From the sequence record OR532814.1: a DNA stretch of 64,000 nt. The stretch is one strand, 5' to 3'. The translations under genes and the position numbers were made by a program. Below the pieces are notes generated by a model that saw only the letters and a program-made list of their open reading frames with translations, made no database searches and was not told the DNA's origin. This document shows, one piece after another, positions 53,634-58,004 of the stretch; position 1 is the stretch's first letter, and the number at the start of each line of letters is the position of its first letter. Source of the DNA: Klebsiella phage RCIP0020.

Positions 53634-54104
53634 TTAACCGTCGTAATCCCCGCCACAATTCACATCGCCTTCAATGAACAGTTCGCGGTTATCACGTAAT
53701 AAATTATACTTTCTTTCGAGTTCAGGCCCGAACGCGTCGGCGTCTTCATACCAGCTATAATTGTATCTTCCGCATTCATCATCATATTCTGGTTCATCGC
53801 CGCGTTCATTGAAGTGAACAATTTTGATATCGTCCATCCCCAGTTCTTTCAACTTATCCCAGATATACGAAATCTCAACGCTATGGGAACCGAACGCTTC
53901 CAGTGAGATCGTACCGTTGCTATCGACTTGAGGAATACCCCACTTCGAACGAGTATCATCGGTGATCATATCTATTAATGACTCAATATTATTCTCACCG
54001 TAGATATCAGCAACTTCCTTTTCTTTACCAGGGCGAACAAGTCCGATCCCGATAATAAAGCTACTGCTTGAGCTATTGCTCACAAACCCAGAACGAATTT
54101 TCAT
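53634..54104 (-). CDS. Ser-rich-leader protein, paralog B (156 aa; MKIRSGFVSNSSSSSFI N-terminus)
   Basis: N-terminal 17 aa identical to the 57489-58004 product. A shared DECG motif near the C-terminus. Rich in acidic and aromatic residues. Confidence 0.55.
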   Translation of the reverse strand: MKIRSGFVSNSSSSSFIIGIGLVRPGKEKEVADIYGENNIESLIDMITDDTRSKWGIPQVDSNGTISLEAFGSHSVEISYIWDKLKELGMDDIKIVHFNERGDEPEYDDECGRYNYSWYEDADAFGPELERKYNLLRDNRELFIEGDVNCGGDYDG

Positions 54105-54259
54105 CGCATCACCATATTACCAATCATGAATAGAGGGATTAGCGCAAAGACGATACCCCATAGAATGACCTTATCTTCACGACGGTCACACCCATGATAG
54201 ATAACACCTCCAGCGAAAATCAATACAACAACTGAAACGAACGCGAATAAAGAAATCAT
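54101..54259 (-). CDS. small membrane protein (52 aa)
   Basis: Short ORF not in the track (MISLFAFVSVVVLIFAGGVIYHG...) with an ATGA overlap onto paralog B. Confidence 0.3.
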   Translation of the reverse strand: MISLFAFVSVVVLIFAGGVIYHGCDRREDKVILWGIVFALIPLFMIGNMVMR

Positions 54260-54906
54260 TTGCGGGTATCCATTCTCATAGAAACTTCTTTCAGGATCTT
54301 ATTCAGATCGTGAAGCGCATCTTTTACGTTACCTTCATTATAGGTAAGCATATCCTGGTACAGCCCTTTCAAGCAACGATTGATAACATATGCTTTTTCG
54401 GAAGGTAACATTGTCCCAGAACGATTATAATCTCTGAAAATGTCCATCATCGTGCCGTTGTTGCCAGGTAATGACGGGTTGAAGTTAACCATACCAGACA
54501 TCAAACTATCAACATACACAACGGTTGTGTTATCAGAACGATACGCGCCACCAACTTTAAACCAGTTGCTGAACACATACGGAGATTCCCGCACTTCGCT
54601 CAAATCGGTTCCGATTTCATCGATGTTTACACGAATGTTGTTAAAATACACCGATTCATCAATAGAACCAGGACGCCATACGATAGCACCATTGTTATTT
54701 TTGAATCCGACTACATCAACCTGCCAGCCATTATCTGTTAACCGGACATCATCAACGACGATGAAATCAGGTAGCTGTGAATGAAAGCCGATGTTTTCAG
54801 GACGGGAATTACGAAACCCATCACGATTGGAGAAATAAAGGATGTCGCCTTGATTCAGTTCGCATATATTCATAAGATTTTTAAAGTCCAATTCAAGTAA
54901 TTCCAC
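54256..54906 (-). CDS. hypothetical protein (216 aa)
   Basis: ORF between the vWA gene and the small membrane ORF. Confidence 0.45.
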   Translation of the reverse strand: MELLELDFKNLMNICELNQGDILYFSNRDGFRNSRPENIGFHSQLPDFIVVDDVRLTDNGWQVDVVGFKNNNGAIVWRPGSIDESVYFNNIRVNIDEIGTDLSEVRESPYVFSNWFKVGGAYRSDNTTVVYVDSLMSGMVNFNPSLPGNNGTMMDIFRDYNRSGTMLPSEKAYVINRCLKGLYQDMLTYNEGNVKDALHDLNKILKEVSMRMDTRK

Positions 54907-54919
54907 AAGTCACCTCAAA

Positions 54920-57161: not shown

Positions 57162-57168
57162 AATTTTC

Positions 57169-57489
57169 TCATTTATAGGTAAATTTTATTAAAATTTCGT
57201 TTACTTTTTTGCTAATAGTATCTAATGCATCATCGCATCCAAACTTACTACTCAACAATGAAACAAAATCATCCATCGTTGTTGTTTGAGACTCGCCAAC
57301 GTCAAAAGACAGAGCGTAGGCAACAGGATTTTTAATCCTTACGATTTGAATAGTATACTCATTCAGATCGAACCGTTCAAGATATTTTCGCAAAGAAAAT
57401 AAATCAATCGGTACTGGTAGAGTTTGACTAAACGTTATTTCTTCCCCCAGTTGATAGGGGGGCATTTTTACACAGATTTCGTATTCCAT
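57169..57489 (-). CDS. hypothetical protein (106 aa)
   Basis: ORF. The stop overlaps the vWA gene leader. Confidence 0.4.
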   Translation of the reverse strand: MEYEICVKMPPYQLGEEITFSQTLPVPIDLFSLRKYLERFDLNEYTIQIVRIKNPVAYALSFDVGESQTTTMDDFVSLLSSKFGCDDALDTISKKVNEILIKFTYK

Positions 57490-58004
57490 CAGTGATGACT
57501 CTTCATAGTGTGTTCCAGATTACGGAAAATTTGCCCGTGTTCAAGCTGTGATTGGAATTCTCCGCATTCATCAGAGTAAGTAAATTCATAAATGAATACA
57601 CCGTTCTGATTGCCAAATTTAGCGTTGTACTCTTCATACAACCACATCTTGATCAGAGCGTCTTTCTCTTCTGTTTCCAGATCATACCAGTCACGCCCAT
57701 CATAAGCAAGCGCAATTTGAGGATTAGACCGATATCGAGTTTCTGCGCTATCTTCGGTTTCCCATTCATAACGCTTATCATCATAGTATGATTCGAAACC
57801 ATCACCCATATGACCACCCAGGTCGCGGTGTACTTGCTGTACAACTTCTTCCGCTGTCGGGCAAGTCATCCAGCTATAACCACAGTTAGGAACACAATCA
57901 CCCATCATTTCGCGGAGATTGTTGATATCAGTCGGATCCTTCGGGAACCGTACAATAAAGCTACTTGATGAACTATTGCTCACAAAACCAGAACGGATTT
58001 TCAT
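57489..58004 (-). CDS. Ser-rich-leader protein, paralog A (171 aa; MKIRSGFVSNSSSSSFI N-terminus)
   Basis: Identical N-terminal 17 aa to paralog B, and a shared C-terminal YSDECG motif. Otherwise divergent. Confidence 0.55.
   Translation of the reverse strand: MKIRSGFVSNSSSSSFIVRFPKDPTDINNLREMMGDCVPNCGYSWMTCPTAEEVVQQVHRDLGGHMGDGFESYYDDKRYEWETEDSAETRYRSNPQIALAYDGRDWYDLETEEKDALIKMWLYEEYNAKFGNQNGVFIYEFTYSDECGEFQSQLEHGQIFRNLEHTMKSHH

Follow-up and report, generated by a model that had tools for sequence, protein, structure and literature searches.

An uncatalogued superfamily of phage proteins with a serine-rich N-terminal tag travels with a radical-SAM enzyme, probably of the SPASM type

Introduction

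The stretch of DNA analyzed here (hereafter the window) comprises 64,000 nucleotides of Klebsiella phage RCIP0020 (OR532814.1). It shares 99.7% identity with Klebsiella phage phi1_146007 and with roughly 110 further Slopekvirus genomes, which are T4-like and measure about 174 kb. Between positions 53,634 and 58,004 the window carries six genes on the minus strand, the outermost of which, p171 and p156, encode small proteins with an identical N-terminus and enclose a gene for a 738-aa protein with a von Willebrand factor A (vWA) domain. This block sits within a long minus-strand run of small accessory genes that begins directly after the plus-strand baseplate genes, and it is not found in T4 itself. 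An earlier reading made from the letters of the window (the sequence-only reading), whose coordinates for all six open reading frames (ORFs) we confirm, had treated the block as a module built around the vWA protein, with p171 and p156 as diverged paralogues sharing a leader peptide. Here we find that this leader acts as a shared functional tag, as that reading had proposed, and that it marks a very large, uncatalogued and phage-only superfamily of proteins that travels with a radical S-adenosylmethionine (radical-SAM) enzyme, probably of the SPASM type, rather than with the vWA protein.

The two tagged genes of the window

The tagged genes and their tags are located as follows.

57489-58004, minus strand: p171, 171 aa, a class-A tagged protein of phrog_7397, with the N-terminal tag MKIRSGFVSNSSSSSF and a variable helical middle
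57954-58004, minus strand: tag of p171 (codons 1-17), identical as protein to the tag of p156, with 6 synonymous nucleotide differences
53634-54104, minus strand: p156, 156 aa, a class-B tagged protein with the same N-terminal tag, ending ...CGGDYDG-COOH
54054-54104, minus strand: tag of p156 (codons 1-17), identical as protein to the tag of p171

Both proteins begin with the same 17 residues, MKIRSGFVSNSSSSSFI. The corresponding DNA differs at 6 of 51 nucleotides, distributed over four codons and all synonymous, including a TCA/AGC serine switch, and the sequences 5′ of the two start codons are unrelated. Taken together, the six synonymous differences and the unrelated upstream DNA exclude a recent gene-conversion tract as the source of the identity, and they bear out the view that the leader is under strong purifying selection as a protein and does not stem from a recent duplication.

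Past the tag, BLASTP aligns nothing significant between the two proteins (best E 0.1), which removes the DECG-like motifs formerly read as retained similarity. Sequence comparison thus detects no homology between the bodies of the two proteins; each has its own conserved C-terminus, FTYSDxxG...LEHGxIFRNLxHxxxSHH-COOH in p171 and the consensus G-x-G-[RY]-[DN]-G in the p156 type (class B). Rather than being recently diverged paralogues, p171 and p156 belong to two old subfamilies, each conserved separately and directly adjacent to one another in other phages. Class A is followed directly by class B in 12 of 75 cases, and the reverse order is never seen; at one such locus (L006) only 15 nt separate the two genes, and p156 aligns over its full length with the class-B gene found there (29% identity, E 3e-7).

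Size, invariance and organization of the tag superfamily

Word-based searches return a few dozen relatives for each of the two proteins; an exhaustive search with a profile built from 26 homologues returns 11,188 cluster representatives at E<=1e-3. The tag, with consensus M-K-[IV]-R-x-G-F-V-S-N-S-S-S-S-S-F, occupies 16 residues at the extreme N-terminus, and two alignments show residues 2, 4, 7 and 9-16 without variation among proteins that elsewhere share about 30% identity. In the joint alignment of the relatives of both proteins, all of the first 16 residues are constant and the remainder drops below 30% identity. Scanning IMG/VR for the string FVSNSSSS yielded 590 stretches, of which 77 loci, belonging to uncultured phages, were fetched. 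These loci contain same-strand runs of up to 13 adjacent tagged genes, encoding proteins of 80-270 aa and often overlapping at their stop and start codons. Ser9, Asn10, Ser11 and Ser12 show no variation in the 297 unique array proteins, and an invariant Arg4 is followed by Gly6 in 289 and by Phe7 in 291 of them. Once the tag is stripped, the same 297 proteins fall into 113 BLAST clusters. The complete collection amounts to 659 tagged genes (495 unique) at 155 loci. The 48-nt sequence encoding the tag takes 488 distinct forms; each serine position makes use of TCN and AGY codons, and Arg4 of AGR and CGN. So many distinct coding sequences, drawing on both serine codon families, point to selection at the protein level.

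The bodies behind the tag form recurrent classes that can be told apart by their extreme C-termini (...SHH, ...GxGRDG, ...GNDNE, ...GTRxC and ...GGY). In class A the protein ends with the pattern F-x-Y-S-D-x-D-G...M-E-H-G-x-I-F-R-N-x-x-H-x-x-x-S-H-H. Another recurrent class carries a CxxC motif right behind the tag. Members of this Cys-pair class (SSSF-[IT]-C-x-[VI]-C-G, with a second CPxC further on) resemble a zinc ribbon joined to the tag, and examples can be found at L005 (4848-5306 and 5615-6112), at L047 (727-1218) and at many further loci; yet another tagged class terminates in CPNC or CPYC.

No Pfam or NCBIfam model matches the superfamily, Pfam being empty for the 32 class-A proteins and the 10 proteins from other classes that were compared with it. 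A sequence-profile search of the PDB with class A matches no solved structure, tblastn of a concatenated eight-gene array against cultured phages gives no match, and phrog_7397 is the only PHROGs family that recognizes the tag, while no more than two PHROGs families touch the superfamily at all. The motif is scarce in cellular genomes: 596 Gb of bacterial and archaeal sequence contain just 83 occurrences, mostly on contigs of metagenome-assembled genomes (MAGs) and on one obvious phage contig in an isolate assembly, a rarity that makes the family essentially phage-specific. Several of the tag-bearing MAG contigs, placed in Nanoarchaeota, Heimdallarchaeota and Patescibacteria bins, are probably mis-binned phage contigs. 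An isolate contig of 178,077 bp labelled Flagellimonas marina (NZ_JBHSCL010000010.1) holds a class-A gene that shares 84% identity with p171 and, some 3.4 kb downstream of it, a class-B gene; judged by its size and its tagged genes, it looks like the genome of an RB43/Karam-type enterobacterial phage contaminating the assembly.

A radical-SAM enzyme is the recurrent neighbor of the tag genes

The gene neighborhood of the tag was analyzed from two directions. Starting from the tag, all ORFs of the tag-selected loci (69 non-Slopekvirus IMG/VR loci and two loci from other sources) were clustered. One protein from outside the family recurs, a radical-SAM enzyme. Of the 69 IMG/VR loci, 45 contain it at a distance of no more than 6 kb, and the two additional loci also have it. 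Starting from the enzyme, IMG/VR was scanned with enzyme-derived patterns only, resulting in 297 relatives, and 72 non-Slopekvirus loci were kept. At least one gene with the strict tag is present within 10 kb of the enzyme in 62 of these 72 loci, every one of them on the strand of the enzyme; a tag gene lies downstream in 59 loci, with a median gap of 561 nt and with 11 loci in which it follows within 45 nt. At least three of the loci that appear empty carry variants of the tag (SNSSSISF, and SFVANSSSSSF in four adjacent genes). When recurrent families are counted over the 72 loci, the enzyme (72/72) and the tag family (64/72) are followed at a distance by the next family (12/72), and no conserved peptidase or transporter is seen at these loci.

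The phyletic distributions agree with this arrangement. Among 50,697 phage records, the enzyme occurs in 171, p171 in 173 and p156 in 172, and the three tallies also nearly coincide genus by genus. The closest complete genome (PP889462.1) encodes exactly two tag genes, both in the window, and one such enzyme, at 139622-140824. That position is about 13 kb past the end of the window, which is why the sequence-only reading could not see the partner. Furthermore, tag variants at positions 6 and 9 are common to all tagged genes of a genome: the 34 variants are concentrated in 15 loci where 29.3 would be expected, a degree of clustering that 2000 permutations never reached. Such clustering by genome fits co-adaptation of the tags to one enzyme.

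The enzyme is 300-410 aa long, with a radical-SAM cysteine triad (for instance CPVSCPFC), a Cys-rich C-terminus and a conserved N-terminal extension of about 85 aa ahead of the cluster motif. The triad has the form CX3CX2C in most copies and CX7CX2C in the Slopekvirus copy (400 aa; L084 14623-15825, equivalent to PP889462.1 139622-140824); this loop insertion is shared by the L006 and L015 copies, and in some others the loop is longer still. Within the triad, C98 is invariant while C87 and C95 vary very little, and further conserved cysteines are found at C279, C304, C322 and C374. The Slopekvirus enzyme fits the pattern CX12GX4C...CX2CX5C, which is that of the SPASM domain. The Pfam Radical_SAM match of the enzyme scores 20.4 bits (cut-off 29.5). 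The NCBIfam matches, likewise sub-threshold, all point to maturases of the SPASM/twitch kind that act on peptides or proteins; the best are the tungsten-cofactor oxidoreductase maturase, MftC and WgkB, each far under its cut-off, and a twitch family is matched weakly. No solved relative of the enzyme was found by sequence.

At three loci of uncultured phages (L021, L024 and L034) hmmsearch shows the radical-SAM gene apparently split into N- and C-terminal ORFs about 0.8-1.1 kb apart, at L034 for example at 1053-1427 and 2270-3277. The split could reflect an intron, an intein or a homing-endonuclease insertion, of the kind often seen in T4-like phages.

The vWA protein and the genes around it

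Between the two tagged genes lie the following features.

54945-57161, minus strand: vWA/MIDAS protein, 738 aa, phrog_2426
56637-57104, minus strand: core of the vWA domain (aa 20-175), with MIDAS residues D24, S26, S28, T97 and D128
57169-57489, minus strand: p106, phrog_7677, limited to the Slopekvirus/RB43/Karam group and outside the conserved system
54256-54906, minus strand: p216, phrog_7309, lineage-specific; annotated as a shorter, 205-aa product in the closest annotated genome
54101-54259, minus strand: p52, a hydrophobic (membrane-like) ORF of 52 aa, phrog_7160

Start and stop codons overlap at several junctions of the block (58001/58004, 57489, 54256-54259 and 54101-54104), with which a single transcription unit is compatible; a scan for promoters and terminators was uninformative, since promoter-like sites are fewer than in shuffled sequence. 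Pfam, NCBIfam and PADLOC searches on ten proteins of the block return the vWA domain as their sole match.

The assignment of an N-terminal vWA domain with its metal-ion-dependent adhesion site (MIDAS) to the 738-aa protein holds up, even if the epithet "giant" overstates its length. Pfam scores aa 20-175 above the gathering thresholds of both VWA_2 (29.2 bits; threshold 27) and VWA (26.4 bits; threshold 23.8), and the MIDAS is complete (D24-V-S26-G-S28, T97 and D128), its residues being invariant or nearly so across 42 homologues. The alpha/beta fold superposes on solved vWA domains. The vWA domain and a beta-sandwich account for roughly aa 1-285, and they are followed by a C-terminal region of about 450 aa (aa 285-738) for which profile searches find no relative in Pfam or the PDB. 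ArnB and 4fx5 also combine a vWA domain with a beta-sandwich, as in the Sec23/24 trunk, but have no recognizable counterpart of that C-terminal region. Compared with BFVD, the model of the protein matches unnamed viral vWA proteins only, and the C-terminal region has no relative among these predicted viral structures either.

Homologues of the vWA protein are present in 502 of the 50,697 phage records, including phages of Salmonella, Dickeya, Rhizobium and Bacillus; the carriers comprise members of the Ackermannviridae, Rhizobium phages and a jumbo phage of Bacillus. The vWA loci of Det7, Internexus and RHph_Y68 lack homologues of p106, p216 and p52 as well as any tagged gene in the surrounding 5 kb, so that the coherent vWA module seen by the sequence-only reading is not supported. 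In the opposite direction, a vWA gene is absent from the 6 kb around the tag at all 69 non-Slopekvirus loci. Since the vWA gene is distributed differently from the tag and occurs on its own, a role of the vWA protein as partner of the tag is not supported. The absence of an AAA+/MoxR partner, also remarked on earlier, is corroborated: Pfam, NCBIfam and PADLOC reveal none among the ten neighboring proteins, and the three other phage lineages have no conserved neighbor. In contrast to vWA/MIDAS proteins such as ArnB and 4fx5, the phage vWA protein has no AAA+/MoxR, kinase or phosphatase partner. In the simplest history, the genes for vWA, p106, p216 and p52 appear to be a lineage-specific insertion that split an ancestrally adjacent class-A/class-B pair in the Slopekvirus/RB43/Karam lineage.

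Recent GenBank records label the vWA protein "minor tail protein" and, in some cases, p156 "head-tail adaptor". PHROGs lists phrog_2426 as of unknown function, and the p156 label goes back to a weak match to phrog_132 (E 8e-10) that Pfam does not support at E<1. We reject the adaptor assignment, given also that p156 is located among minus-strand accessory genes and that the adaptor and head-closure genes of the genome are elsewhere. Both labels look like propagating misannotations, and the structural identity that they would confer on these proteins is unsupported. A proteomic survey that recovered the vWA protein of a Vi01-like phage on one occasion lists it under DNA/RNA processes, among the non-structural proteins (PMC10892097). 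The paper on KP15/KP27 mentions neither the vWA gene nor the radical-SAM gene.

Discussion

The tag is the sole element common to more than 100 unrelated bodies, and the enzyme is its sole conserved partner. On these grounds we consider it probable that a phage-encoded radical-SAM enzyme, with a putative auxiliary-cluster domain of the SPASM/twitch type, docks on the 16-residue tag and modifies it. One enzyme would then mature many differing tagged proteins, two in the present genome and up to 13 per locus in uncultured phages, and its N-terminal extension could be a substrate-binding domain. The enzyme would abstract a hydrogen atom within the exposed part of the tag (approximately residues 2-12, which include K, R, G6, F7, V8, S9, N10, S11 and S12), and the outcome would be a cross-link or an oxidation, such as a Phe7-x-Ser9 cyclophane, an ether link or the conversion of serine to formylglycine, with epimerization as a further candidate; these chemistries are taken from related enzymes, and none is preferred. 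The variable bodies, which form more than 100 sequence clusters and in some cases bear zinc-ribbon-like Cys pairs, would constitute the functional and probably host-directed parts, as their diversity, their arrangement in arrays and their position among accessory genes suggest host-directed, possibly counter-defence, functions. More tentatively, and with somewhat more doubt than assurance, we envisage a two-component maturation system in which the enzyme-modified tag becomes an N-terminal "warhead" or cofactor on a diversifying set of host-directed effectors, two here and 13 or more per locus elsewhere.

Several observations weigh against the proposed role of the enzyme. Its link to the tag is one of guilt by association, and the clustering of tag variants by genome could also reflect shared ancestry or conversion within arrays. 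In the present phage the enzyme gene is not adjacent to the tagged genes but lies 19 kb from p171, and the cluster motif of this copy, CX7CX2C, is non-canonical; the SPASM model TIGR04085 scores 24.5 bits, below its cut-off of 27. About one third of the tag-selected loci have no enzyme within 6 kb, although it may lie further off. A homologue with 30% identity in a 462-kb uncultured phage (L085, LR756500.1, 11968-12984) has no tagged gene within 12 kb; its substrates may be encoded at a different place in this jumbo genome, or else this branch of the enzyme serves a different function. Finally, the AlphaFold2 model of p171 places tag residues 13-20 in a core strand, which makes part of the tag structural and means that it could be kept for folding.

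This last point is the starting point of the main alternative, in which the tag is a structural or oligomerization element, a strand and serine loop nucleating a shared small fold or the co-assembly of paralogues, and the radical-SAM enzyme is a frequent neighbor that does something else, for instance modify nucleotides or DNA. In the model, strand 1 of the p171 sheet consists of residues 13-20 and is predicted with high confidence (predicted local distance difference test, pLDDT, 89-95), and each subfamily keeps its extreme C-terminus (SHH, GxGRDG, GNDNE or GGY), suggesting that the termini pack together; an unknown DNA modification has been reported for Slopekviruses (PMC5219037). A strand, however, is rarely invariant across more than 100 otherwise unrelated bodies, and residues 1-10 of the model have low confidence (pLDDT 57). 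Moreover, the enzyme gene is part of arrays in which stop and start codons overlap, it never lies on the opposite strand, and it is the only recurrent neighbor in two reciprocal searches and matches the phyletic pattern of the tag. We thus regard a purely structural tag as unlikely.

The invariant Arg4 and the near-constant Gly6 and Phe7 lead to another alternative, as K-I-R-x-G-F-V resembles the glycyl-radical signature R-V-x-G-[FWY]. Here the enzyme would be an activase placing a glycyl radical on Gly6, and the tagged proteins would be small radical carriers or spare parts like GrcA/YfiD. The activase of pyruvate formate-lyase accepts a 7-residue peptide as substrate, T4 encodes an autonomous glycyl-radical protein, and one copy of the enzyme shows a weak match to NrdG2 (16 bits). 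Nonetheless, the arginine of the tag is one position out of the register of the signature, and position 6 is S, T, K or D throughout some genomes. Radical glycines in known systems are C-terminal and buried in a large barrel, whereas here the residue would be the sixth of a protein of 80-270 aa. The enzyme also bears a C-terminal Cys-rich domain, and glycyl-radical activases are not known to have a C-terminal SPASM/twitch domain; in addition, the phage already owns an NrdD/NrdG pair. A glycyl radical on the tag is accordingly quite improbable.

Least credible of all is that the leader is a virion targeting or processing signal, comparable to the capsid-targeting sequence of T4 internal proteins, or a recognition tag for the vWA neighbor, as the sequence-only reading had suggested: a common N-terminus on diverse bodies follows the logic of T-even internal proteins, tagged genes flank the vWA gene in the Slopekvirus lineage and automatic labels point to structural proteins, but the tag is devoid of Glu and therefore offers a T4-type prohead protease no (L/I)xE site, it occurs on contigs of 6 to 548 kb with very different gene content, and the separate distribution of vWA genes, the weak basis of the p156 label, the adaptor genes located elsewhere and the non-structural listing of the Vi01-like protein, all described above, speak against it.

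The proposed modification of the tag by the radical-SAM enzyme follows a logic known from other systems. In the HxS, FxS, GRRM and XYE radical-SAM/SPASM systems described by Haft, and in the "triceptides" with their three-residue cyclophanes, one enzyme with auxiliary-cluster cysteines likewise stands beside genes that share only a short motif. Residues F7-V8-S9 of the tag make up an aromatic-x-Ser element, similar to FxS, which unlike triceptide motifs is present once and without repeats. The phage system further differs from the Haft-type systems in being exclusively phage-encoded, in having a single motif at the extreme N-terminus, in comprising up to 13 different folded substrates and in lacking a conserved peptidase, transporter or second maturase nearby, and the XYE, GRRM, FxS and HxS maturase models are absent among the NCBIfam matches of the enzyme. 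The closest parallel is the HXS antiphage system, where the effector HxsA, itself a protein, is matured by the radical-SAM proteins HxsB/HxsC (PMC13128918). Like HxsA, a substrate of the phage enzyme can be a folded protein instead of a short peptide.

Three further systems share part of this organization. Prochlorosins are arrays of precursors of peptides that are synthesized ribosomally and then modified post-translationally (RiPPs), with a conserved leader and a hypervariable core. They are alike in their tandem genes, conserved N-terminal recognition sequence, diversified remainder and single enzyme, but their core measures 20-30 aa, whereas the phage proteins have a conserved part of 16 residues and a variable part that is a domain of 60-250 aa. 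Unlike RiPP cores, the phage bodies share nothing besides the tag, and for this reason modification would most likely take place inside the conserved part. T-even internal proteins carry a capsid-targeting sequence, and resemble the tagged proteins in that diverse small phage proteins encoded at variable loci have a short N-terminus in common; the tag differs in lacking a protease consensus, in extending far outside T4-like phages and in having as partner a radical-SAM enzyme instead of the prohead protease. Anaerobic sulfatase-maturating enzymes convert Ser or Cys to formylglycine. They are radical-SAM enzymes of the SPASM type and act on a serine in a short motif of a full-length protein; the tagged proteins, however, have neither the (C/S)-x-(P/A)-x-R motif nor a sulfatase domain, and the phage enzyme does not match the maturase family. 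While this logic is thus familiar from RiPP arrays, Haft's motif systems and HXS, the open-access text that we searched contains no description of the tag family, no paper with its motif and no description of a phage radical-SAM/SPASM system of this kind, although an earlier description is possible.

If the tag is indeed modified by the enzyme, more than 11,000 sequence clusters of phage "dark matter" would gain a common biochemical handle, and a large uncatalogued class of phage-encoded, enzyme-matured effectors would come into view. Radical-SAM maturation of folded proteins would then operate on the phage side of the arms race, with HXS representing the bacterial side, and the new pair of short tag and enzyme might provide a portable tool for protein modification. 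Slopekvirus and RB43-type phages of Klebsiella and E. coli, with only one enzyme and two substrates, offer a tractable system. Independently of its chemistry, the analysis corrects two misleading labels that are spreading in the genomes of Klebsiella phages used in phage therapy.

Other genes of the minus-strand run

An ORF on the minus strand at 52978-53337 contains MKYLLLALSLMTTTAIASEPP, which resembles a signal peptide; its weak PADLOC match to PDC-M01B (E 0.004) is probably due to chance. Just upstream of the block, in the same run, a C5 cytosine DNA methyltransferase is encoded at 59061-59972 (minus strand), with DLCAGVGG and FPCQAFS motifs in its translation. The 335-aa protein encoded at 60468-61475 (minus strand) is annotated as a nucleotidyltransferase in the closest genome and has homologues in 14 tag-selected loci.

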